Assembly: GCF_044704955.1 (NCBI RefSeq)
Contig: NC_091984.1
Coordinates: forward strand, 169,694,001 to 169,758,000
DNA from: Pristiophorus japonicus
Lineage: Eukaryota
Direction of reading: 5' to 3'
DNA length: 64,000 nucleotides
A model generated the notes under the pieces. It saw only the letters and a list, made by a program, of their open reading frames with translations, was not told the DNA's origin and made no database searches. Of the stretch, positions 4,353 through 62,250 are shown in pieces. The translations under genes and the position numbers were made by a program. Numbering within the stretch: the first letter of the stretch is position 1; each line of letters opens with the position of its first letter.

Positions 4353-5329
4353 AAAGTCTCAGTTTGGAAGCAAAGCAGCAGGTTGTTATGGACAGACAAT
4401 GCTGAACTCAAATATACTCCTCCATAACAGTAATGATAAGACCACTCGACAGACACGGACAAGAAGGCCATTAGGCTTTTCCAAGCTCAGCAATCCAGAA
4501 AGAGGTTACAAGTCCCATCACACCATCCAGCCGCTGTTTAAATAATTCAAGGATTTTTGCCTACACGACCTAACCTACTACCAAAAGTCATAGTGCTCCA
4601 AAGCCACAAGGCAATTCTCTCAATCTCAGTTTACCATTAACAGCAAGTTGCTGTGCTGAGGTCGGGCGTTTCCAGACTGGGGAGTGGGGGTGGGGGGAAC
4701 ATTGAGGGCAAGTCATATCCCACCAGAGTGTCAAACCAGCCTTTGGTCAGCAGACTAGCCATGATGATAAGAATAAAGCTTGCACACCATCCCTTTCCTT
4801 CAGAGAAAATATATTACATATGAGGATGTCAAATACTACGTATAACATTGTTATTAAATTGGGTTACTTATGCCAACCATGCCTTTAGTTTAGCGGCAAA
4901 TATCAGTCAAAGCTTAAAACTGATTGAACCCATGCTTGTTTGAATCCCTTGCCATCCACATTTTGTATACATGTTAATTTAAACTAATACTGTTCGTGAT
5001 TAGTAACAGAGGAAGGGCATTAGTGAAGTTACTGAGTTTGAGAGCAATAAGGGTTTCTGTGCTGCTCTTTGGCTAAACACAGTGACCAGAACAAAGCTCC
5101 AGGCACATACAAAATAATCAGCACAGTTCTGGTCCATTAAGTTGCAGTTATGTTTCCAGAGGGGCTAAGCCCGGAGTCGCTGCAATGGACTCGATTGTAT
5201 TCCTGCATTATATTGGGGGGCGGTGTGCACAGTACCACTTCATTCCCTCTCCCTTAATATCACACATCAGGCACTGTTGTAGAATCAGCATGTTGAGGTC
5301 TCTTTTTAAGTACTTAAAATTTTTTTTCC

Positions 5330-7519: not shown

Positions 7520-7835
7520 ATGAACATAAGAATTAGGAGCAGGAGTAGGCCATATGGTCCCTCCGCCTGCTCCGCCATTCAATAAGATCGTGGCTGATGT
7601 GATCTTGGCCTCAACTCCACTTCCCTGCCCGCTCCCCAAAACCCTTGACTCCCTTATAGTTCAAGAATCTGTCTATCTCAGCCTTGAATACATTCAATGA
7701 CCCAGCTTCCACTGCTCGCTGGGGATAGAGAATTCCAAAGTTTCACGACCCTCAGAGAAGCAATTCCTCCTCATCTCTGTCTTAAATGGGCGACCCCTTA
7801 ATCTGAAACTATGCCCCTGGTTCTAGATTCCCTCA
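7520..7835 (-). mobile_element. CR1 3' end (host of the next insertion)
   Basis: GAACATAAGAATTAGGAGCAGGAGTAGGCC tail plus ORF2 C-terminus. Confidence 0.85.
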
Positions 7836-7929
7836 TAGAAACATAGAAAATAGGTGCAGCAGCAGGCCATTCGGCTTTTCGAGCATGCATCACCATTTAA
7901 TATTATCATGGCTGATCGTTCACCTCAGT

Positions 7930-10899
7930 ACCCCACCCCTGCCTTCTCGCCATACCCCCTGATCCCTTTAGCCAGATGGGCCACATCCAACTCCCTTTTG
8001 AATATATCCAATGAACTGGACTCAACAACTTTGTGGAAGAGAATTCCACAGGTTCACAAATCTCTGGGTGAAAAAGTTTCTCCTCATCTCGATCCTAGAT
8101 GGCCTACCCCTTATCCTTAGACTGTGACCCCTGGTCCTGGACTTCCCCAACATCGCACACATTCTTCCTGCATCTAACCTGTCCAATCCCGTCAGAATTT
8201 TATATGTTTCTATGAGATACCCTCTCATTCTTCTAAATTCCAGTGAATATAAGCCTAGTCGATCCAGTCTTTCTTCATATGTTAGTCCTGCCATCCCAGG
8301 AATCAGTCTGGTGAACCTTCGCTGCACTCCTTCAATAGCAAGAATGTCCTTCCTCAGATTAGGAGACCAAAACTGCACACAATACTCAAGATGTGGTCTC
8401 ACCAAGGCCCTGTACAACTGCAGTAAGACCTCCCTGCTCCTATACTCAAATCCTTTCGCTATGAAGGTGAACATTGCATTTGCTTTCTTCAACACCTGCT
8501 GTACCTGTATGCCTACTTTCAATGACTGATGTACCATGACACTCGGGTCTCATTGCACCTCCCCTTTTACTAATCTGTCACCATTCAGATAATAATCTGC
8601 CTTCCTGTTTTTGCCACCAAAGTGGATAACCTCACATTTATCCACATTATACTGGATCTGCCATGCATTTGCCCACTCACCTAACCTGTCCAAGTCACCT
8701 TGCAGCCTCTTAGCATCCTCCTCACAGCTCACCAGCCACCCAGCTTAGTGTCATCTGCAAACTTGGAGATATTATATTCAATTCCTTCGTCTAAATCATT
8801 AATATATATTGTAAATAGCTGGGGTCCCAGCACTGAACCTTGCAGTACCCCACTAGTCACTGCCTGTCATTCTGAAAAGGACCCATTTATTCCCACTCTT
8901 TCCTTCCTGTCTGCCAACCAGTTCTCTATCCACGTCAATACATTACCCCCAATCCTATGGGCCTTAATGTTGCACACTAATCTCTTGTGTGGGACCTTGT
9001 CAAAAGTCTTTTGAAAGTCTAAATACACCACATCCACTGGTTCTCCCTTATCCATTCTACTAGTTACATCCTCAAAAAATTCCAAAAGATTTGTCAAGCA
9101 TGATTTCCCTTTCATAAATCCATGCTGACTTGGACCGATCCGGTCACTGTTTCCAAATGCGTTGCTGTTACATCTTTAATAATTAATTCCAGCATTTTCC
9201 CCACTACCAATGTCAGGCTAACTGGTCTATAATTCCCTGTTTTCTCTCTCCCTCCTTTTTTAAAAAGTGAGGTTACATTAGCTGTCCTCCAATCCATAGC
9301 AACTGATCCAGAGTCCATGGAATGTTGGAAAATGACCACCAATGCATCTGCTATTTCTAGGGCCACTTCCTTAAGCACTCTGGGATGCAGACTATCAGGC
9401 CCTGGGGATTTATCGACCTTCAATCCCATCAATTTCCCAAACACCATTTCCTGACTAATAAGGATTTCCCTCAGTTCCCCCTTCTCGCTAGATCCTCGGT
9501 CCCCTGGTATTTTTGGGAGGGTATTCGTGTCTTCCTTAGTGAAGACAGAACCAAAGTTCTTGTTCAATTGGTCTGCCATTTCCTTGTTCCCCATTATGAA
9601 TTCACCTGATTCTGACTGCAAGGCACCCAACATTCGTCTTCATTAACCTTTTTCTCTTCACATACCTATAGAAGCTTTTGCAGTCAGTTTTTATGTTCCC
9701 TGCAAGCTTCCTCTCATACTCTATTTTCCCCCTCCAAATTAAACCCTTAGTCCATCTCTGCTGAATTCTAAATTTCTCCCAGTCCTCAGGTTTGCTGCTT
9801 TTTCTGGCCAATTTATATGCCTCTTCCTTGGATTTAACACTATCCCCAATTTCCCTAGTCAGCCATGGTTGAGCCACCTTCCCCGTTTATTTTTACGCCG
9901 GACAGGGATGTACAATTGCTGGAGTTAATCCATGTGATCTTTAAATGTCTGCCATTACCTATCCACCGTCAACCCTTGAAGTATTATTAGCCAGTCTATC
10001 CTAGCCAAATCAAGTCTCATACCGTCGAAGTTACTTTTCTTTAAGTTCAGGACTCTAGTCTCTGAATTAACTGTGTCACTCTCCATCTTAATGAAGAATT
10101 CTACCATATTATGGTCACTCTTCCCCAAGGGACCTCGCACAATTAATCCTCTCTCATTACACAACACCCAGTCTAGGATAGCCAGCTCTCTAGTTGGTTC
10201 CTCGACATATTGGTCTAGAAAACCATCCCTTATACACTCCAGGAAATCCTCCTCCACCCTATTGCTACCAGTTTGTTTAGCCCAATCTATATGTAGCTTA
10301 AAGTCACCCATGATGACTGCTGTACCTTTATTGCACGCATCCCTAATTTCCTGTATGATGTCATCCCCAACCTTACTACTACTATTGGTAGCCTGTACAA
10401 CTCCCACTAGCGTTTTCTGCCCTTTGGTGTTCTGCAGCTCTACCCATACAGATTCCACCTCATCCAAGCTAATTTCCTTCCTTATTATTGCGTTAATCTC
10501 CTCTTTAACCAGCAACACTACCCCACCTCATTTTCCTTTCGGTCTATCTTTCCTGAATATTGAATACCCTTGGATGTTAAGTTTCCAGCCTTGGTCACCC
10601 TGGAGCCATGTCTCTGTAATCCCAATTACATCATATCCATTAACGGCTATCTGCACAGTTAATTCATCCACCTTATTATGAATGTTCCTCGCATTGAGAC
10701 ACAGAGCCTTCAGGCTTATTTTTTTAATACTCTTTGTCCTTTTAGAATTATGTTGTAATGTGGCCCTTTTTGATTTTTGACTTTGATTTTTCTGCCCTTC
10801 TCTTTTACTTTTCTCCTTTATACCTTTTGCTTCTGTCCCCATTTTACTTCCCTCTGTCTCCCTGCATAGGTTCCCATCCCCCTGCCCGATTAGTTTAAA
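7930..10899 (-). pseudogene. CR1 ORF2 (APE endonuclease + reverse transcriptase), frameshifted
   Basis: ORF pieces [59 protein letters not shown]. Confidence 0.93.
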
Positions 10900-11762
10900 T
10901 CCTCCCCAACAGCACGAGCAAACTCCCTCCCCCGCCTCCCTCAGGACATAGGTTCCGGTCCTGCCCAGGTGCAGACCGTCCAGTTTGTACTGGTCCCACC
11001 TCCCCCAGAACCGGTTCCAATGTCCCAGGAATTTGAATCCCTCCCTGTTGCACCATTCCTCATGCCACGTATTCATCTTAACTATCCTGCTATTTCTACT
11101 CTGACTAGCATGTGGCATTGGTAGCAGTCCTGAGATTACTATCTTTGAGGTCATACTTTTTAATTTAACTCTAGCTCCCTAAATTCAGCTTGTAGGACCT
11201 CATCCCATTTTTTACCTATATCGTTGGTACCTATATGCACCACGACAACTGGCTGTTCACCCTCCCCCTCCAGAATGCCCTGCAGCAGCTCCGAGACATC
11301 CTTGACCATTGCACCAGGGAGGCAACATACCATCCTGGAGTCTCGATTGCGACCACAGAAATGCCTATCTAATCCCCTTACAATAGAGTCCCCTACCACT
11401 ATAGCTCTCCCACTCTTTTTCCTGCCCTCCTGTGCAGCAGAGCCACCCATGGTGCCATGAACTTGACTGCTGCTGCCTTCCCCTGATTGTCCATCTCCCC
11501 CAACAGTACCCAAGGTGGTATATCTGTCTTGGAAGATGACGGCTGCAGGGGACCCCTGCACTACCTTCCTTCCACTGCTCTTCCTGATGGTCACCCATTC
11601 CCTATCTGCCTGTGTAACCTTTACCTGTGGTGTGACTATTTCACTAAACGTGCTATTCACGACATCCTCAGCATCATGGATGCTCCAGAGTGAATCCATG
11701 CGCAGCTCCAGAGCCGCAATGCGGTCTGTCAGGAGCTGCAGCTGGATACACTTCCCGCACAC
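10890..11762 (-). pseudogene. CR1 ORF1 (Cys finger/leucine zipper + SGNH/GDSL esterase-like domain)
   Basis: CGKC..LL...I..LE; IVVGDSIVRG, CCLPGA, VHIGTND, DGLHL blocks; ends FARAVGEDLN*. Confidence 0.9.
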
Positions 11763-11799
11763 ATAGTAGTCAGGGACATTATGGTCTCCTCACATGGTG

Positions 11800-12465
11800 G
11801 ATGATAGAGGCTCTGGAAAGGGTGCAGAAGGGGGCCATTTGACTAATTCCAAGTCTAAAGCATCTTACTTATCAAGATAGGTTAAAAGAGTTGGGACTCT
11901 ATACCTTAGAGCAGTGCAGACATAGGGGGATATGATTGAAGGGGGTATAATAAGATAATGAAGGGAATAGACAGTGTTCCAGCTGACAGTTTATTTCAAT
12001 TAAATAGGTTAGACAGGACCAGGGGTCATGAATTTAAGTTGTATCGGGCTAGACCTTGGTTAGATGTCAGGAGGTGGCTCTTTCCCCAGAGAATAGTAGA
12101 CCTCTGGAACAAGCTGCCGTTTCATGTGGTGGATGCAGACTCAATGAATTCCTTCAAGTGAAAGCTGGATTTGTTTCTGGCTGCAGCAGAGATCAACTCT
12201 TACAGAAAGTAGGTACTGCAGGGAATTTAATGGCCAGACTGATCTCCTGGACTAGCTCCGATCGGCGAGATGGGTCAGAGAGGAATTTCCTAGATTTTTT
12301 TCTCCCAAATTGGCCTGCGTTTTTTAATCTCTTTTTTTGCCTTCCCCAGGAGATCACATGGTTTGAGGTGGGGTGGAGTGTATATGTTGTGATACACATG
12401 GTATCGCGATTGGGTGGGACAGGATCAATCGACCAGGTGGTCTTTACCTGTCCATCAATGTTCAT
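11800..12465 (+). mobile_element. CR1 3' fragment of a distinct subfamily with long 3'UTR
   Basis: TRGHEFKL...FPQRIVDLWNKLP, then ~250 nt UTR. Confidence 0.75.
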
Positions 12466-13849: not shown

Positions 13850-14035
13850 GGTTGAATAAATTTAAGACAGAGATAGACAGTTTCTTAACCGATAAGGGGA
13901 ATAAGGGGTTATGGGGAGCAGGCAGGGAAGTGGAGTTGAGACCATGATCGGATCAGCCATGATCTTATTGAATGGCGGAGCAAGCTCGAGGGTCCGTATG
14001 GCCTACTCCTGCTCCTATTTCTTATGTTCTTATGA
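13850..14035 (+). mobile_element. CR1 3' tail
   Basis: FKTEIDSFL...GCCTACTCCTGCTCCTATTTCTTATGTTCTTATG. Confidence 0.85.
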
Positions 14036-18717: not shown

Positions 18718-20605
18718 TTAGAAACATAGAAACATAGAAACATAGAAAATAGGTGCAGGAGTAGGCCATTCGGCCCTTCTAGCCTGCACCGCCATTCAAT
18801 GAGTTCATGGCTGAACATGCAACTTCAGTACCCCATTCCTGCTTTCTCACCATACCCCTTGATTCCCCTAGTAGTAAGGACTTCATCTAACTCCTTTTTG
18901 AATATATTTAGTGAATTGGCCTCAACAACTTTCTGTGGTAGAGAATTCCACAGGTTCACCACTCTCTGGGTGAAGAAATTTCTCCTCATCTCGGTCCTAA
19001 ATGGCTTCCCCCTTATCCTTAGACTGTGTCCCCTGGTTCTGGACTTCCCCAACATTGGGAACATTCTTCCTGCATCTAACCTGTCTAACCCCGTCAGAAT
19101 TTTAAACGTTTCTATGAGGTCCCCTCTCATTCTTCTGAACTCCAGTGAATACAAGCCCAGTTGATCCAGTCTTTCTTGATAGGTCAGTCCCGCCATCCCG
19201 GGAATCAGTCTGGTGAACCTTCGCTGCACTCCCTCAATAGCAAGAATGTCCTTCCTCAGGTTAGGAGACCAAAACTGTACACAATACTCCAGGTGTGGCC
19301 TCACCAAGGCCCTGTACAATTGTAGCAACACCTCCCTGCCCTTGTACTCAAATCCCCTCGCTATGAAGGCCAACATGCCATTTGCTTTCTTAACCGCCTG
19401 CTGTACCTGCATGCCAACCTTCAATGACTGATGTACCATGACACCCAGGTCTCTTTGCACCTCCCCTTTTCCTAATCTGTCACCATTCAGATAATAGTCT
19501 GTCTCTCTGTTTTTACCACCAAAGTGGATAACCTCACATTTATCCACATTATACTTCATCTGCCATGCATTTGCCCACTCACCTAACCTATCCAAGTCGC
19601 TCTGCATCCTCATAGAATCCTCCTTGCAGCTCACACTGCCACCCAACTTAGTGTCATCGGCAAATTTGGAGATACTACATTTAATCCCCTCGTCTAAATC
19701 ATTAATGTACAGTGTAAACAGCTGGGGCCCCAGCACAGAACCTTGCGGTACCCCACTAGTCACTGCCTGCCATTCTGAAAAGTCCCCATTTACTCCTACT
19801 CTTTGCTTCCTGTCTGACAACCAGTTCTCAATCCATGTCAGCACACTACCCCCAATCCCATGTGCTTTAACTTTGCACATTAATCTCTTGTGTGGGACCT
19901 TGTCGAAAGCCTTCTGAAAGTCCAAATATACCACATCAACTGGTTCTTCCTTGTCCACTCTACTGGAAACATCCTCAAAAAATTCCAGAAGATTTGTCAA
20001 GCATGATTTCCCTTTCACAAATCCATGCTGACTTGGACCCATCATATTACCTCTTTCCAAATGCACTGCGATGACATCCTTAATAATTGATTCCATCATT
20101 TTACCCACTACCGATGTCAGGCTGACCGGTCTCTAATTCCCTGTTTTCTCTCTCCCTCCTTTTTTAAAAAGTGGGGTTACATTGGCTACCCTCCACTCCA
20201 TAGGAACTGATCCAGAGTCAATGGAATGTTGGAAAATGACTGTCAATGCATCCACTATTTCCAAGGCCACCTCCTTAAGTACTCTGGGATGCAGTCCATC
20301 AGGCCCTGGGGATTTATCGGCCTTCAATCCCATCAATTTCCCCAACACAATTTCCCGACTAATAAGGATTTCCCTCAGTTCCTCCTCCTTACTAGACCCT
20401 CCGACCCCTTTTATATCCGGAAGGTTGTTTGTGTCCTCCTCAGTGAATACCGAACCAAAGTACTTGTTCAATTGGTCCGCCATTTCTTTGTTCCCCGTTA
20501 TGACTTCCCCTGATTCTGACTGCAGGGGACCTATGTTTGTCTTTACTAACCTTTTTCTCTTTACATATCTATAGAAACTTTTGCAATCCGTCTTAATGTT
20601 CCCTC
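18718..20605 (-). mobile_element. young 5'-truncated CR1
   Basis: (TTCTATGT)3 tail; uninterrupted 427-aa RT/C-terminal ORF; one upstream frameshift at ~20133. Confidence 0.95.
18825..20108 (-). CDS. CR1 ORF2 reverse transcriptase, C-terminal part (open frame within a truncated element)
   Basis: [34 protein letters not shown] motifs. Confidence 0.8.
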   Translation of the reverse strand: MGKMMESIIKDVIAVHLERGNMMGPSQHGFVKGKSCLTNLLEFFEDVSSRVDKEEPVDVVYLDFQKAFDKVPHKRLMCKVKAHGIGGSVLTWIENWLSDRKQRVGVNGDFSEWQAVTSGVPQGSVLGPQLFTLYINDLDEGIKCSISKFADDTKLGGSVSCKEDSMRMQSDLDRLGEWANAWQMKYNVDKCEVIHFGGKNRETDYYLNGDRLGKGEVQRDLGVMVHQSLKVGMQVQQAVKKANGMLAFIARGFEYKGREVLLQLYRALVRPHLEYCVQFWSPNLRKDILAIEGVQRRFTRLIPGMAGLTYQERLDQLGLYSLEFRRMRGDLIETFKILTGLDRLDAGRMFPMLGKSRTRGHSLRIRGKPFRTEMRRNFFTQRVVNLWNSLPQKVVEANSLNIFKKELDEVLTTRGIKGYGEKAGMGY

Positions 20606-40349: not shown

Positions 40350-41705
40350 ATCAGTGGTGGTAAACATTTGGAAACAAGGAGAGCTCAGACACGTGTCATG
40401 CTCCTCCTGTGCAATGTGGGAAGTCAGGGACGCTTCCAGTGTCCCTGACGACTACATGTGCAGGAAGTGTATCCTGCTGTAGCTCCTGACAGACCGCATT
40501 GCGGCACTGGAGCTGCGCATGGACTCACTCTGGAGCATCCGCGAAGCTGAGGATGTCGTGAATAGCACATTTAGTGAGTTGGTCACACCGCAGGCAAAGG
40601 TTACACAGGCAGATAAGGAATGGGTGACCATCAGGCAGAGCAGTGGAAGGAAGGTAGAGCAGGGGTCCCCTGCGGTCATCCCCCTCCAAAACAGAGACAC
40701 CGTTTTGGGTATTGTTGGGAGGGATGACTCATCAGGGGAAGGCAGCAGCAGCCACGTTCATGGCACCATGGGTGGCTCTGCTGCTCAGGAGGGCAGGAAG
40801 AAGAGTGGGAGAGCTATATTGGTAGGGGATTCAATTGTAAGTGGAATAGATAGGCGTTTCTATGGCCGCAATCGAGACTCCAGGATGGGATGTTGCCTCC
40901 CTGGTGCAAGGGTCAAGGATGTCTTGGAGCAGCTGCAGGACATTTTCGAGGGGGAGGGTGAACAACCAGTTGTCGTGATGTACCAAAGATATAGGTAAAA
41001 AAATCAGGATGAGGTCCTACAAGCTGAATTTAGGGAGCTAGGAGTTAAATTATAAAGTAGGACCTCAAAGGTAGTAATCTCAGGATTGCTACCATTGTCA
41101 AGTGCTAGTCAGAGTAGGAATTGCAGGATAGCTAAGATGAATACGTGGCTTGAGGAGTGGTGCAGGAGGGAGGGATTCAAATTCCTGGGACATTAGAACT
41201 GGTTCTGGGGGAGGTGGGACTAGTACAAACCGGACGGTCTGCACCTGGACAGGACCGGAACCAATGTCCTAGGGGAAGTGTTTGCTGTTGGGGAGGGGTT
41301 AAACTAATATGGCAGGGGGATGGGAACCTATGCAGGGAGACAGAGGGAAGTAAAACAGGGGCAGAAGCAAAAGATAGAAGAAGAAAAGTAAATGTGGAGG
41401 GCAGAGAAAACCAAGGCAAAAATCAAAAAGGGCCACATTACAGCAAAAGTCTAAAGGGACAAAGTGTTTTAAAAAGACAAGCCTGAAGGCGCTGTGCCTC
41501 AATGCGAGGAGTATTCGTAATAAGGTGGACGAATTAACTGCGCAGGTAGCTATTAACAAATATGATATAATTGCCATTACAGAGACATGGCTCCAGGGTG
41601 ACCAAGGCTGGGAACTCAACATCCAGGGGTATTCAACATTCAGGAAGGATGGACAGATAGGAAAAGGAGGTGGAGTAGTGTTGCTGGTTAGAGAAGAAAT
41701 TAACA
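40350..41705 (+). mobile_element. CR1 5' part: ORF1 (esterase) and start of ORF2
   Basis: CSSCAMW...CRKC finger, ILVGDSIV, CCLPGA, DGLHL, then LCLNARSI/ITETWL. Confidence 0.93.
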
Positions 41706-43761
41706 TAAAAACATAGAAAATAGGTGCAGGAGTAGGCCATTCGGCCCTGCACCACCATTCAATAAGATCATGGCTGATCATTCACCTCAGTACTCCTTTC
41801 CTGCTTTCTCTCCATACCCTTTGATCCCTTTAGCCGTAAGGGCCATATCTAACTCCCTCTTGAATATATCCAATGAACTGGCATCAACAACTCTCTGCGG
41901 TAGGGAATTCCACAGGTTAACAACTCTCTGAGTGAAGAAGTTTCTCTTCATCTCAGTCCTAGATGGCTTACCCCTTATCCTTAGACTGTGTCCCCTGGTT
42001 CTGGGCTTCCCCAACATCGGGAACATTCTTTCTGCATCTAACCTGTCCAGTCCCATCAGAATTTTATGTTTCTATGAGACTCCCTCTCATCCTTCTAAAC
42101 TCCAGTGTATAAAGGCCCAGTCGATCCAGTCTCTTCTCATATGTCAGTCCAGCCATCCCTGGAATCAGTCTGGTGAATCTTCGCTGCACTCCCTCAATAG
42201 CAAGAACATCCTTCCTCAGATTAGGAGACCAAAACTGAACACAATATTCCAACTGAGGCCTCACCTGTACAACTGCAGCAAGACCTCCCTGCTCCTGTAT
42301 TAAAAATCCCTAGCTATGTAGGCCAACATACTATTTGCCTTCTTCACCGCCTGCTGTACCTGCATGCCAACTTTCAATGACTGATGTACCATGACACCCA
42401 GGTCTCGTTGCACCTCCCCTTTTCCTAATCTGCCGCCATTCAGATAATATTCTGCCTTCCTGTTTTTGCCACCAAAGTGGATAACCTCACATTTATCCAC
42501 TTTATACTGCATCTGCCATGCATTTGCCCACTCACCTAACCTGTCCAAGTCACCCTGCAGCTTCTTAGCATCCTCCTCACAGTTCACACCGCCACCCAGT
42601 TTAGTGTCATCTGCAAACTTGGAGATATTACACTCAATTGCTTCATCCAAATCATTAATGTATATTGTAAATAGCTGGGGGCCCAGCACTGAGCGCTGCG
42701 GGACTCCACTAGTCACTGCCTCCCATTCCGAAAAGGACCCGTTTATCCTGACTCTCTGCTTCCTGTCTGCCAACCAGTTCTCTATCCACGTCAGTACATT
42801 ACCCCCAATACCATGTGCTTTGATTTTTCACACCAATCTCTTGTATGGTACATTGTCAAAAGCCTTTTGAAAGTCCAAATACACCACATCCAGTGGTTCT
42901 TCCTTGTCCTCTCTACTAGTTACATCCTCAAAAATTCTAGAAGATTTGTCAAGCATGATTTCCCTTTCATAAATCCATGTTGACTTGGACCGATCCTGTC
43001 ACTGCTTTCCAAATGCGCTGTTATTTCATCTTTAATAATTGATTCCAACATTTTCCCCACTACGGATGTCAAGCTAACCGGTCTATAATTACCCGTTTTC
43101 TCACTCCCTCATTTTTTAAAAAAGTGGTGTTACATTAGCTACCCTCCAGTCCATAGGAACTGATCCAGAGTCGATAGACTATTGTACAATGATCACCAAT
43201 GCATCCACTATTTCTAGGGTCACTTTATTAAGTACTCTGGGATGCAGACTATCAGGCCCCGGGGATTTATCGGTCTTCAGTTCCTTCAATTTCCTTAACA
43301 CAATTTCCCGCCTTAGAAGGATTTCTTTCAGTTCCTCTTTCTCACTAGACCCTCGGTCCCCTAGTACTTCCGGAAGGTTATTTGTGTCTTCCTTCGTGAA
43401 GACAGAACCAAAGTATTTGTTTAACTGATCTGCCATTTCTTTGTTCCCCATTATAAATTCACCTGAATCTGACTGCAAGGGACCTACGTTTGTCTTCACT
43501 AATCTTTTTCTCTTCACATAACCATAGAAGCTTTTGCAGTCAGTTTTTATGTTCCCAGCAAGCTTCCTCTCGTACTCTATTTTCCTCCTCCTAATTAAAC
43601 CCTTTGTCCTCCTCTACTGAATTCTAAATTTCTCCCAGTCCTCAGGTTTGCTGCTTTTTCTGGCCAATTTATATGCCTCTTCCTTGGATTTAACACTATC
43701 CTTAATTTCCCTCGTTAGCCACGGTTGAGCCATCTTCCCCCTTTTATTTTTACTCCAGATA
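41706..43761 (-). mobile_element. antisense CR1 nested in the plus-strand CR1
   Basis: Tail at 41706; RT motifs in ORFs 42064-43517. Confidence 0.93.
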
Positions 43762-44225
43762 GGGATGGCAGGACTGACATATGAGGAGAGACTGGATCAA
43801 CTGGGCCTGTATTCACTGGAGTTTAGAAGAACGAGAGGGGATCTCATAGAAACGTATCAGATTCTGACGGGACTGGACAGGTTCGATGCAGGAAAAATTT
43901 TCCCGATGTTGGGGAAGTCCAGAACCAGGGGACATAGTCTAAGGTTAAGGGGTAAGCCATTTTGGACTCAGATGAGGAGAAACTGCTTCACCCAGAGAGT
44001 TGTGAACCTGTGGAATTCTCTTCCGCAGAGAGTTGTTGATGCCAGTTCATTAGATATATTCAAGAGGGAGTTGGATATGGCCCTTACGGCTAAAGGGATC
44101 AAGGGATATGGAGAAAAAGCAGGAAAGGGGTGCTGAGGTGAATGATCAGCCATGATCTTATTGAATGGTGGTGCAGGCTCGAAGGGCCGAATGGCCTGCT
44201 CCTGCCCTAATTTCTATGTTTCTAT
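43762..44225 (+). mobile_element. CR1 3' end
   Basis: MAGLTYEERLDQLGLYSLE...; TTTCTATGTTTCTAT tail. Confidence 0.93.
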
Positions 44226-46889: not shown

Positions 46890-48263
46890 ATACCAGTATA
46901 AGGGCGCCCTTATACATGGCCTTTTTCGATCTTACAAAGGCCTGTGACACTGTCGACCATGAGGGCTGATGGAGCATCCTCCTCCATTTTGGGTGCCCCC
47001 AAAAGTTAGTCAACATTCTTCGCCTGCTCCATGACGACATGCAGGTCGTGATTCTTATCAGCAGATCCGTTCCACGTCCGAACTGGGGTCAAACAGGGCT
47101 GCGTCATGGCTCCAAACCTCTTCTCAATCTTCCTCGCTGCCATGCTCCATCTCACGGTCGACAAGCTGGAGTGGAACTAAACTACAGAACCAGTGGGGGA
47201 AGCTGTTTCATCTATGCCGCCTCCAAACCAGGTCCAAGACCACCCCAAACTCTGTCGTTGAACTTCAGTATGCGGACGACGCCTGTGTCTGCGCACATTC
47301 TGAGACTGAACTCCAGGATATAGTCGATGTATTCACCGAGGCATATGAAAGCATGGGCCTTACGCTTAACATTCGTAAGACAAAGGTCCTCCACCAGCCT
47401 GTCCTCTTCGCACAGCACTGCCCTCCAGTCATCAAGATTCATGGCGCGGACCTCGACGGCACGGACCACTTCCCATACCTCGGGAGCCTCTTGTCAACAA
47501 AGGCAGACATTGATGCGGAGATTCAACATCGCCTTCAGTGCGCCAGTGCAGCCTTCGGCCGCCTGAGGAAAAGACTGTTCGAAGACCAGGCCCTCAAACC
47601 TACCATCAAGCTCATGGTCTACAGGGCTGCAGTAATACCCGCCCTCCTGTGTGGATCAGAGACATGGACGACTAACAGAAGACACATCAAGTCTCTAGAG
47701 ATATATCACCAACGATGTCTCCGCAAGACCCTGCAAATCCCCTGGGAGGACAAACGCACCAACATCAGTGTCCTCGCCCAGGCTAACATCCCCAGCATTG
47801 AAGCACTAACCACACTCGATCAGCTTCGCTGGGCAGGCTACATAGTTCACATGCCAGACACGAGACTCCCTAAGCAACTGCTCTATATGGAGCTCCTTCA
47901 TGGCAAACAAGCCAAAAGGTGGGCAGCAGAAACGTTACAAGGACACCCTCAAAGCCTCCCTGGTGAATTGCAACATCACCACTGATGCCTGGGAGACCCT
48001 GGCCGAAGACTGCCCCAGGTGGATAAAGTGCATCCGGGAGTGCGTTGAGCTCTTCGAATCTCAACGCTGCGAGCGTGAAGAGATCAGGCGCAGGTAGCGG
48101 AAGGAGTGTGTGATAAATCAGTGCCACCCACCCTTCCCCCGACGGATATGTGTCCCACCTGTGACAGGGTCTGTGGCTCTCGTGTTGGACTGTTCAGCTA
48201 CCAAAGAACTCACTTTAGGAGTGGAAGCAAGTCTTCTTCGATTCCGAGGGAAGGCCTATGATG
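46890..48263 (+). mobile_element. 5'-truncated RTE (BovB-like clade) LINE
   Basis: LYMAFFDLTKA, LQYADD, GLTLNIRKTKVL, FPYLGS, SETWT, FHQRCLR-like, QLRWAG; (ATG)n tail; TSD ATCGGTTAAGA at 46858-46868 and 48264-48274. Confidence 0.93.
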
Positions 48264-49021: not shown

Positions 49022-51675
49022 CTAATCTTTTGTGTTTCATGCACAAGTACCTCCAGGTCCTACTGTACTGCAGCACTTTGCAATTTTCTCCATTTAATAA
49101 CTTGCTCTTTGATTTTTTTTTCTGCCAAAGTGGATAACCTCACCCTTTCCAACATTATACTCAATCTGCCAAATTTTTGCCCACTCACTTAGCCTGTCTA
49201 TGTCCTTTTGCAGATTTTTTGTGTCCTCCTCACACATTGCTTTTCCTCCCATCTTTGTATCGTCAGCAAATTTGGCTACGTTACACTCGGTCTCTTCTTC
49301 CAAGTCGTTAATAATTGATTGGGGTCCCAGCACTGATCCCTGCAGCACCCCACTAGTTATTGATTGCCAACCCGAGAATGAACCATTTATCCTGACTCTC
49401 TGTTTTCTGTTAGTTAGCAAATCCTCTATCCATGCTAATATATTTCCCCCAACCCTGTGAACTTTTATCTTATGCAGTAACCTTTTATGTGGCACCTTGT
49501 CAAATGCCTTCTGGAAGTCCAAATACACTACATCCACTGGTTCCCCTTTATCCACCCTGTTCATTGCATCCTCAAAGAATTCCAGCAAATTTATCAAACA
49601 TGACTTGCCCTTCATAAATCCATGCTGACTGCCTGACCGAATTATGCTTTTCCAAATGTCCTGCTACTGCTTCTTTAATAACAGACTCCAACATTTTTCC
49701 AACTACAGATGTTAGGCTAACTGGTCTATAGTTTACTGCTTTTTGTCTGCCTCCTTTTTTGAATAGGGGAGTTACATTTGCAGTTTTCCAATCTGCTGGG
49801 ACCTCCCCAGAATCCAGGGAATTTTGGTAAATTACAACCAATGCATCCACAATCCCTGCCACTACTTCTCTTAAGACCATAGGTTGCAAGCCATCAGGTC
49901 CAGGGGATTTATCTGCCTTTAGTCTCATTATCTTACTGAGTACCACCTCCTTAGTGATTGTTGTGTTAGGTTCCTCCCCCTCTGTAACCCCTTGACTATC
50001 TACTGTTGGGATATTGTTAGTATCGTCTACCGTAAAGGCTAATACAAAATATTTGTTCAGAGTTTCTGTCATCTCCATGTTCCCCATTACTAATTCCCCT
50101 GTCTCGTCCTCTAAGGGACCAATATTTACTTTAGCTACTCTTTTCCTTTTTATATACCTATAGAAACTCTTGCTATCTGTTTTTATATTTCATGCTAGTT
50201 TACTTTCATATTCTATCTTCCCTTTCTTTAAAAAAAAAGGATCGTCATTCTTTGCTGGCTTTTAAAAGCTTCCCAATCTTCTGTCCTCCCACTAGTTTTG
50301 GCCACTTTGTATGCCCTTGTTTTTAAATTGGATACCGTCCTTTATTTCTTGAGCAAGCCACGGATGGCTTTCTTTTCTTTTGCACCCTTTTCTCCTCACT
50401 GGAATATATTTTTGTTGGGAATTGTGAAATATCTCCTTAAATGTACGCCACTGTTCATCAACCATCCTACACTTTAATCTATTTTCCCAGTCCACTTTAG
50501 CCAACTTTGCCCTCATACCTTCATGGTCTCCTTTATTTAAGCTTAGTACGCTGGTTTGAGATCCAACTTTCTCACCCTCCATCTGAATTTGAAATTCAAC
50601 CATGCTATGATCACTCATTCCAAGGGGATCCTTTATTAATCCTGTCTCATTACACAGGACTAGATCCTGGATAGTTTGCCCCCAGTTTGTTCCGTTACAT
50701 ACTGCTCAAGGAACCCGTTGCTTATGCACTCTATGAACTCTTCCTCAAGGCTACCCTGACCAATTTGATTTGTCCAATCAATATGGCGGTTAAAATCACC
50801 CATGATTATTGCTGTTCCCTTTTTACAGGCCCCCACTATTTCCTGGTTTTTATTCCGACCAATAGAGTTGCTACTGTTAGGGGGTCTATAGACTACGCCC
50901 ACCAGTGACTTTTCCCCCATTTTATTCTTTATCTCCACCCAAACTATTTCATCATCCTGATCATTTGAGCCAATATAATTTCTCACTATTGCAGTGATTC
51001 CATCCTTTATCAACAGAGCTACCCCATCTCCTTTTCCTTTCTGTCTGTCAAATACGCCTGAATAATTAGTTCCCAGTCCTGGTCACCTTGCAACCACATC
51101 TCTGTAATGGCTATCAGATCATACCTATTTGTATCTATTTGTGCCTTCAACTCATCTATTTTGTTACGAATATTACGTGCATTTAGACAAAGAGCCTTTA
51201 AATTTTTTTTTACCCTTTTTTCCTGCTTGTTTCCTTCAAACTCACTTTCTTTATTTTTGCTTTCTCATTCCAGCTTTACTCCCCTCCCTACTGAACCTAT
51301 TTTCAGGTTCCCATCCCCCTGCCAAGCTAGTTTAAACCCTCCCCAACAGTACTAGCAATCCCCCCCCACCCCATGAGGATATTGGTCCCGGCTCTGTTGA
51401 GGTGCAACTCGGCCGGCTTGTACAGGTCCCACCTCCCCAGAAGCGGTCCCATTGCCTCAGAAAACTAATGCCCTCCCTCCTGCACCATCTCTCCAGCCAC
51501 GTATTGATCTGCTCTAACCTCCTGTTTCTGTACTTGCTAGCGCGTGGCACCAGGAATAATCCGGAAATTACTACCTTTGAGGTCCTGCTTTTTAGTCTCT
51601 CTCCTCGCTCCCTAAACTCTGCCTGCAGGACCTCATGCCTCTTTCTACCCATGTCATTGGTCCCGATATGGACCA

Positions 51676-60699: not shown

Positions 60700-62250
60700 C
60701 TTAGTAAACATCTAGGGGTTGTTGCAAGAATGTATGGGGCAAGAAAACATGAAATGGTCCAATGATGCTCATTCTTCGCCACAACTCTCCGACTGAAGTA
60801 CATCTCTCCAATCCCCTAACTCTCCCATCAAAGCTCATCCCTTTTATACTTCAACTCTCCCAAAGTTCATCTTTCCAGTACTGTAACTTTTTCATTGGGT
60901 CTTTCAACTATACTTAAAAAAAAATCTAATCTCAGTTATTTGCCTGGCATATTATTCCAAACATGTATAACCGTTTTGGGAAGATTTCCTCTATTTTCCA
61001 TTTGCAGTGAAATTAGAAATGCATACTTTATACTCCCACTTATAACTGTGCCACAAATATCTAAAAAGTTAATTTTGTGATACAGTGATGGATTTAAATA
61101 AACTTTCCACTCTTGTCAAGGAATGTCCTCTGGTCTTAATTTCCTGTCTTGCTTTTAAGTGATAAAACGGAGTTGATCTTATCTGAACGATTTATTAAAG
61201 ATCATTTAATGTGCCTTGCTGCATCCATTTTACACTGGGATCATTCTTCTTGCTCTTTTCTCCACCCTCTCCCAAGTACATTTCCTTTTTGTGGCATGAA
61301 GATCAAACCTGGACAAAATACTTTTAAATGTTTTCAGCAATGCATTATAAAACCTTAGAACATAATTTTTCAACTTGTTTCCTATTGTGTCAGCTTAAAA
61401 TTCCCACCAGCTTGCTTTGCTTCACTGATATTGAAAGTGATATATTTTATAATCCCAGGTCCCTTTCCAAATCTCCTTATGCGAATTCAATTCCATTCCT
61501 TATTTAATTATTGCTCACATTTTCTTTGAATCTCTCTGAAACTTCACATTTCTAGTTTAAATTTAATTTGCCATTAGTTTCTCCAATTGCATAATTGATC
61601 TAAATTCTTTTGCAAATCTTTAGCTGCATCGTCTGCCTCTATTCTGTTCAAATTTGACAAGCCTACGCTTAATTTTAGTAACTTGGTCATTGATGTAGAT
61701 TATAAACAGGAATCCAGGCATTGACCCATGCGGGAGACTACAAAACAGCTTTCCCCAAACTGCTGTTACACCTCACACAAGTACTCAGCTTCCTTTTTTA
61801 AAAAAAACAGCCTTCGACAGTTTCATGTTCAACCCTGGCTTCCTGGGGCCTTTAGTTCAGTTAGGCATCTTTGACATAGAACCTTGTCAAAAGCCCTGTG
61901 AAAGTCCAAATAAACGATATGATTGGGAGCACCATTATCGCTTTACTGGTAGCATCTTCAAAGTCTACAAGAAGGTTGGTCAGGTAGGATCTTCCCCTTC
62001 TAAATCCATGCTGGTTGCTTCATATTAGGTTACTCCTCCAACCTACCTATGGAATATGCCCATTATTTTACCTGTTGTTGGACCAATCATTTGTGGACAT
62101 TTTTAAATATAGATACTACATTTGCATGCTTCCAGTCTTTCAGAGCATCACCAATGCAGAGTCATCCTTTCATGATGTCAAGTAGTGCTTCACAAATTTG
62201 CTGATTTCATCGAACACTATCTCAGGGAATTGGTTCGTCTCAGCATATCA
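60700..62250 (-). mobile_element. very old CR1-type LINE
   Basis: Faint QHGFRRGRS, YLDF..AFDKV, SPAWVNAW (GVPQGSVLG-like) and DLG remnants with CR1-like 3'UTR. Confidence 0.65.

Follow-up and report, generated by a model that had tools for sequence, protein, structure and literature searches.

A putative programmed -1 frameshift signal at the ORF1/ORF2 junction of esterase-type CR1 retrotransposons

CR1 is one of the most abundant clades of vertebrate long interspersed nuclear elements (LINEs), and the way in which LINEs translate their second open reading frame (ORF2) has been described as unclear (PMC3708506, in the part available). Here we consider the junction between ORF1 and ORF2 in CR1 copies from a 64,000-nucleotide (nt) stretch of animal DNA crowded with them, namely positions 169,694,001 to 169,758,000 of Pristiophorus japonicus contig NC_091984.1 (hereafter the window, numbered from its first letter). 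The worked-out cases of LINE ORF2 translation are those of reinitiation: the mRNAs of SART1 and mammalian L1 are likewise bicistronic, with ORF2 downstream of ORF1, and both elements make a free ORF2 protein by termination-reinitiation. Frameshifting is not a new idea for LINEs as a whole, since TRE5-A and TRE3-A of Dictyostelium, non-long-terminal-repeat elements with an apurinic/apyrimidinic-type endonuclease (APE), both need a -1 shift for ORF2 according to a figure legend (PMC5911963); they belong to another clade and have another ORF1, and the likeness to CR1 is drawn from that legend's statement. Among viruses, U_UUA_AAC signals such as that of infectious bronchitis virus (excerpts of PMC5009743) have the same heptamer and register as the CR1 junction described below, and yield an abundant upstream protein and a rarer polymerase fusion.

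The closest described relatives are the canonical vertebrate CR1 LINEs (type IVB in PMC4120745; also PMC13343379, both seen as excerpts), which have the same zinc finger, coiled coil and SGNH esterase in ORF1, the same APE and reverse transcriptase (RT) in ORF2, and a tail with a stem-loop and a microsatellite; the published consensus rows (PMC13343379) carry the same junction letters. The available portions of the main texts of these two papers make no mention of frameshifting and do not address the route of ORF2 translation, and there is likewise no mention of CR1 frameshifting in the available portions of PMC3708506, PMC7140322, PMC3905857, PMC2734521, PMC11835228 and PMC1925062. No paper on it was found in the literature searched, the 1990s papers on chicken and turtle CR1 lying outside its scope. 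We regard it as probable, judging from the sequence patterns laid out below, that ORF2 of esterase-type CR1 elements is made by programmed -1 frameshifting as an ORF1-ORF2 fusion.

The heptamer at the junction and its conservation

Five features define the junction: the heptamer stands in the ORF1 register, a stop directly adjoins it, the -1 frame of ORF2 opens just before it, its silent sites are conserved and no AUG ahead of ORF2 is conserved. The copy flagged in the preliminary description of this DNA (copy 1) lies on the minus strand, from 11789 to 7834, and its junction reads GGG GAG GAT TTA AAC TAA. The final Leu and Asn codons of ORF1, with the wobble T before them, form T_TTA_AAC (10893..10899, minus strand), and the same letters recur in copy 3 of the window, in a fish-type metagenome locus (L001) and in 18/18 consensus junctions. 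The stop TAA follows at once (10890..10892, minus strand), for which relatives use TAG or TGA. The letters thus bear out the earlier placement of the heptamer at 10899-10893, in the ORF1 register and directly before the stop. The accompanying claim that ORF1 ends on the heptamer holds for the register at the junction; the ORF1 frame of copy 1 is itself broken twice, around 11170 and where about 11 nt have been inserted (10926-10943). As had also been described, the -1 frame (FKLIGQGDGNL...) is open into the endonuclease: 62 codons of a basic linker (FKL...KKIS; 10714..10899, minus strand) lead to LKALCLNARN at 10713, and the frame meets a stop at 10530-10528.

Copy 1 is an ordinary vertebrate esterase-type CR1 LINE. 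Its ORF1 (zinc finger, coiled coil and SGNH esterase; 10890..11789, minus strand) lacks its start, has the two frame breaks and matches the Pristiophorus protein P0034 by tblastn at 74-83% identity in two frames, with 83% across the esterase end; among named organisms, sharks and rays come closest. The Pfam match of this ORF1 to Lipase_GDSL_2 is weak (E 0.005), and its relatives carry PF13472. ORF2 (8025..10713, minus strand; tblastn with P0207) holds the APE endonuclease and RT and is broken by stops and frameshifts, with a weak Pfam match to Exo_endo_phos_2 in copy 1 and a match to RVT_1 in a sister copy. The 3' tail (7834..7890, minus strand) has a stem-loop region and a TTCTATG-type end; the CR1 tails of the window end in such repeats, and the tail of a sister copy folds at -23.5 kcal/mol. 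By eye, the window junction closely resembles published rows labelled CR1, e.g., ScyCan_CR1-1a (PMC13343379, partial supplement). As a dead insertion, copy 1 retains the signal passively; since it is unable to work as it stands, the question concerns the family.

Of the three junction copies claimed for the window, all were found, at 10899, 41298 and 51336, with one lacking the first T of the heptamer. This is copy 2, which reads G_TTA_AAC followed by TAA (41298..41307, plus strand) at the end of an ORF1 that runs in a single frame from 40378 to 41304. Copy 3, from a divergent subfamily, reads T_TTA_AAC TAG (51327..51336, minus strand). An 18-nt G-rich block is identical in all three and is followed by a linker that differs among them. 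Copy 3 and about 86% of the aligned depth of contig X1 carry a stop in the -1 frame six codons upstream of the heptamer; its site in copy 1 (10915..10917, minus strand, five sense codons ahead of the heptamer) is mutated, the 10916 G>T seen in about 86% of X1 depth being the stop that copy 1 lost. Likewise, a variant at 10888 in about 97% of X1 depth means that the family mostly reads TAA TA. Among the 40 of 152 variant rows listed there was no variant at 10889-10899, a result that we do not use as evidence. An exact match to the junction 10-mer at 4978 and a near match at 61561 turned out not to be junctions.

The 10-mer is common in the window (23 matches with at most one mismatch against 13.3 expected), so the word by itself means little. 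Its placement is another matter: of 2647 codon positions in the CR1 coding DNA of the window (12 stretches), 9 carry a canonical slippery heptamer in register and none carries TTTAAAC, and this rarity makes a chance location at the last two codons of ORF1 unlikely. To a wider set of elements we applied the search term TTAAAC plus a stop, over the first 400 nt of each consensus row in the accessible part of the PMC13343379 supplement, with junctions judged by eye. Of 31 matches, 18 were ORF1/ORF2 junctions, from sharks, rays, a chimaera, bowfin, a teleost, coelacanth, a frog, a lizard and crocodilians. TTA, AAC and the preceding wobble T, the last outside the search term, are kept in all 18 readable junctions; hence, conservation of the heptamer beyond amino-acid need, which the preliminary description had left to be established, is found here. 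In 14 of the 17 junctions that show the full codon, this T occupies a four-fold degenerate wobble position (GCT 9, GGT 3, CTT 2), and the stop varies (TAG 11, TAA 6, TGA 1). Six synonymous Leu/Asn spellings gave 14 matches with TAG and 25 with TAA (22 listed), and none of the 36 listed is a junction. Of the 261 Leu codons in CR1 coding DNA of the window 37 are TTA, and of the 109 Asn codons 41 are AAC. A search with an anchor upstream of the junction returned five matches, three of them junction rows of the same set. Taken together, these patterns indicate that the junction signal is real, family-wide across jawed vertebrates and probably functional.

Proteins offer a second view of the same letters. 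Among 181 proteins, 57 end 22-34 residues past the esterase DGxH motif, and these ORF1 homologues finish in LN (22/57), GN (12/57) or otherwise (23/57). The residue before LN has codons ending only in T or C in 11 cases and only in A or G in 1, against 26 and 49 at neighbouring positions (Fisher p 2.5e-4, for sequences that are not independent). GN is preceded by Gln in every one of its 12 proteins, which come from three families, with tails of 24, 27 and 28 residues, and ten of the twelve belong to one family. The residue before LN or GN thus appears to covary as the slippery rule predicts, CAG GGA AAC being a spelling, supposed from protein, that would give G_GGA_AAC. Further, P0015-P0018 have GF at or near their end, compatible with G_GGU_UUU. 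U_UUA_AAC, G_GGA_AAC and G_GGU_UUU are listed with the heptamers at which mammalian ribosomes shift most readily (excerpts of PMC5009743). A supposed further witness of G_GGA_AAC, the GKL of P0144, was rejected as it lies inside the linker. Some of the 23 ORF1s with other endings are decayed copies, and several look to be what we take to be L2-type.

Could protein coding by itself account for the heptamer? Leu-Asn in frame 0 and the overlapping Phe-Lys-Leu in frame -1 would together force its letters, and the TTTAAACTA motif also occurs in 5' untranslated region (UTR) rows of some shark CR1s (PMC13343379, partial supplement), as might be expected were it an RNA element with a role other than in translation. 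However, FKL is constrained only if it is translated, and in L001 and copy 3 a stop six codons upstream shuts the -1 frame, with no AUG from there to FKL; on the other side, LN is not required by the esterase fold, because 23 of the 57 related ORF1s end otherwise. We therefore hold a by-product of coding, or an RNA element of that kind, to be quite improbable. As a separate observation, a second TTTAAACTA motif is present in the 5' UTR of two shark CR1s (same partial supplement).

Start codons, reinitiation and other routes to ORF2

The preliminary description had raised the possibility of a conserved in-frame ATG before the endonuclease. None is conserved: L001 has none until codon 44, and in none of the 18 FKL proteins does a Met stand between FKL and the endonuclease. 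L001 has an intact junction and esterase end, reads CAT TTA AAC TAG and has a tail identical to a cluster that includes sturgeon records; its -1 frame has a stop six codons upstream, and its first ATG lies after the LNARS motif, inside the endonuclease. Among 120 ORF2-type proteins, those with FKL ahead of the endonuclease have it without an intervening Met in 18 of 18 cases; another 75, for the most part proteins whose called start lies within the linker, show no FKL in the 75 residues before the motif, and 27 have no match to the endonuclease motif. Relatives have Leu or Val where several of the ORF2 starts were called, and such starts may in fact be TTG or GTG. FKL is present in the crane P0128 and turtle P0064 gene models, and copies 2 and 3 have no linker ATG in the stretches that stay in frame. 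In the sequences compared, an AUG ahead of the ORF2 endonuclease is thus sometimes present and not conserved.

Scans of viral contigs found no relatives, a scan of genome contigs gave two weak loci, and a metagenome scan gave 11 loci, with a CR1-type junction only in L001. Loci L003-L006 were rejected as CR1 junctions, as they hold a different, long-tailed esterase gene; no DGxH match was seen in L002 and L007-L011. On the contigs of L003-L006 a CR1-like esterase is extended by a variable tail, 110-220 residues long and rich in Pro and Ser, with no ORF2 behind it.

Several of our observations weigh against frameshifting. In copy 2 the first T of the heptamer is replaced by G. The compared CR1 sequences are often close kin and the rows noisy, so that the 18 junctions are not independent trials and the counts overstate independence. 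The 23 ORF1 tails that end in neither LN nor GN belong here too. Met is found in the linker at varying places (crane P0128, P0148, P0131, P0173 and, at 10842, copy 1, whose ATG at 10842-10840 is private to it), and in 4 of 6 distinct FKL proteins of the junction type once P0157 and P0144 are set aside. UAAUG with its AUG in the ORF2 frame occurs in 3 of the 18 junctions, all of them from sharks (ScyCan_CR1-1a, SquAca_CR1-17a and SquAca_CR1-6c; PMC13343379, partial supplement). Finally, translation of L1 ORF2 can dispense with its AUG, any sense codon being tolerated at the start (PMC1965478, in the part available), and a missing AUG is hence no proof of frameshifting.

These last points speak for termination-reinitiation, i.e., a restart near the ORF1 stop in the ORF2 frame, at UAAUG or without an AUG, giving a free ORF2 protein, with the conserved letters and the G block serving termination or restart. 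SART1 uses just such a UAAUG (PMC3708506, in the part available), and in CR1 the stop always adjoins the conserved block. Yet the overlap seen in three CR1 junctions is absent from the other 15 of the 18 consensus junctions, from the three window copies and from L001; the window family mostly reads TAA TA, which is Ile in the ORF2 frame; and reinitiation leaves both the silent-site pattern of X_XXY_YYZ and the covariation of the LN and QGN endings unexplained. We consequently rate reinitiation as unlikely, if the strongest of the competing accounts.

A third possibility places the event in the RNA, as splicing to a CTAG/G acceptor or as polymerase slippage that adds one base at the TTT-AAA run. 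The TAG-type junctions do end in YAG, and in P0198-P0200 the esterase and endonuclease lie in one frame, joined as ...YLKL..., implying a gain of one base. Against this, AG is missing at the stop of the TAA and TGA junctions (7 of the 18 rows, with copies 1 and 2 in addition), each run spans just three bases and the in-frame forms are singleton clusters; we deem such an event very improbable. The joint ...RYLKLVGQGG of P0198, P0199 and P0200 implies that one base was gained in the A run of the heptamer, by mutation, an RT slip or a sequencing error, and it marks where the frames meet. In P0117 the esterase C-terminus is in frame with the endonuclease start without LN or FKL; the element either has a single ORF by nature or is a mutated copy. 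Splice-donor-like GGTGAGT and GGTAAG occur in the 5' UTRs of shark CR1s (SquAca_CR1-3, SquAca_CR1-18, CarCar_CR1-14, ScyCan_CR1-12 and PriPec_CR1-10; same partial supplement).

Predicted products and candidate stimulators of the shift

Returning to frameshifting, which we favour, we advance the following mechanism. Most ribosomes would stop at the end of ORF1 and release a protein of about 310 residues. A minority would slip with tRNA-Leu and tRNA-Asn in place, from UUA AAC to UUU AAA, and read ...GLN-L-x-x-QG... through the basic linker into the endonuclease and RT; the resulting fusion of roughly 1,300 residues (about 310 + 60 + 920) and about 145 kDa would be made at a low rate. Slippage would then fix a high ratio of ORF1 to ORF2, as in gag-pol. 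In the tandem-slippage model AAC is decoded as Asn before the slip, and the main transframe peptide would consequently have Asn rather than Lys. On this count the peptide ...GEGLKL... earlier proposed as diagnostic needs correction, the main form being expected as ...GEGLNL...; for the shark type we predict ...GEGLNLIWQGDGN..., with a minor form that has K instead of N.

If true, such a gag-pol-like shift would alter the size and make-up of the CR1 RT protein. Further, the enzyme would be attached to an esterase domain that has been proposed to target membranes (PMC4120745, in the part available), the clipping or misjoining of CR1 ORF2 by gene callers would be explained, and CR1 retrotransposition assays would need to keep the junction intact.

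The preliminary description had rightly called the G-rich block conserved and 6 nt downstream of the heptamer; the role of stimulator that it suggested for the block is unsupported, the folds being weak. In copy 1 the block (10869..10886, minus strand) comprises a run of five G, two bases and a run of three G, and encodes QGDGN in the -1 frame; it begins at 10886, 6 nt past the heptamer, and the run of five G begins 10 nt past it. No pseudoknot or stable stem-loop was found 5-9 nt downstream of the heptamer, no stem of at least 5 bp is common to the compared junction sequences, and no Rfam match was found at the junction. Six local folds gave z-scores of -0.99 to -1.76 in five cases and +0.42 in the sixth, and the first 60 nt downstream are 72-83% purine. 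These results fall on the side against frameshifting, as does the comparison of G-quadruplexes with shuffled sequences, in which only copy 3 did better than its shuffles (9/200; others 74-104/200). Thus, the fold check of the downstream 60 nt that had been suggested yielded no pseudoknot and a weak two-tier G-quadruplex, predicted by ViennaRNA 6 nt past the heptamer in all three window copies and not in L001. Unlike the viral signals, the CR1 junction has no pseudoknot or strong stem-loop, has a stop directly adjacent and is followed by purine-rich RNA with G runs; failing the local-pseudoknot feature, it is not a canonical member of the viral -1 class.

A synthetic three-tier G-quadruplex with a 6-8 nt spacer gave about 7% -1 shifting against 0.4% for a disrupted control (PMC3919603, in the part available), and a two-tier structure would be expected to be weaker. 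By eye, a run of at least four G soon after the stop occurs in about 14 of the 18 consensus junctions, and ORF2-type protein families keep QG at a constant distance from FKL; both suggest that something is being kept. In pea enation mosaic virus a nearby stop is known to influence the -1 shift, and no natural frameshift stimulated by a G-quadruplex was known as of a 2016 review (both from excerpts of PMC5009743); a stimulator of this kind in CR1 could hence be of a new type. With least certainty of all, we suggest that the likeliest helpers of the shift are the adjacent stop and the G-rich block, without a classical pseudoknot. More speculatively still, CR1 and related elements of other animals may share a membrane-binding esterase-endonuclease-RT fusion, swapping among U_UUA_AAC, G_GGA_AAC and G_GGU_UUU and driven by the adjacent stop and a G tract (as a G-quadruplex, a protein-binding site or a long-range arm) without a pseudoknot, a generalization that we offer tentatively.

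As for a long-range arm, a duplex of about 11 bp (-15 to -20 kcal/mol) can be drawn between the G block and the element's own 3' tail. Over 24 probe/body pairs, 0-33% of 45-nt bins did as well as the tail or better, the tail ranked first in 2 of the pairs, and co-folding with the G block leaves the tail's own stem intact. The pairing is therefore not supported, the tail being a fair and not an outstanding partner, which again tells against the shift.

CR1 tails and neighbouring elements

In the partly available supplement of PMC4316615, judged by eye, amniote or crocodilian-type CR1 tails have two stems separated by a conserved stretch rich in C, a possible pairing partner for the G runs of the junction, and the 3' UTRs of crocodilian-type CR1s hold the nine letters GGCAGGGGG, as in the shark junction block. 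In the window, the tail stem covaries between subfamilies (GGTGCAGG/CCTGCACC versus GGAGCAGG/CCTGCTCC), as seen in the 3' tail at 18733-18790 (minus strand) and its sisters at 7834, 41704, 45089, 53581, 58439 and 13893-14035; the 3' side of the internal loop is more constant than the 5' side.

The CR1 copies are also nested in one another. The tail of copy 1 lies within an older CR1 (7523-7833, minus strand), a further CR1 fragment (11813-12188, plus strand) adjoins its 5' break, and the endonuclease of copy 2 is interrupted by an opposite-strand CR1 (41704-43767, minus strand). Finally, a frame of 316 amino acids at 47035-47985 (minus strand) encodes an RT C-terminal region unlike those of the CR1 copies, which we presume to be RTE-like.

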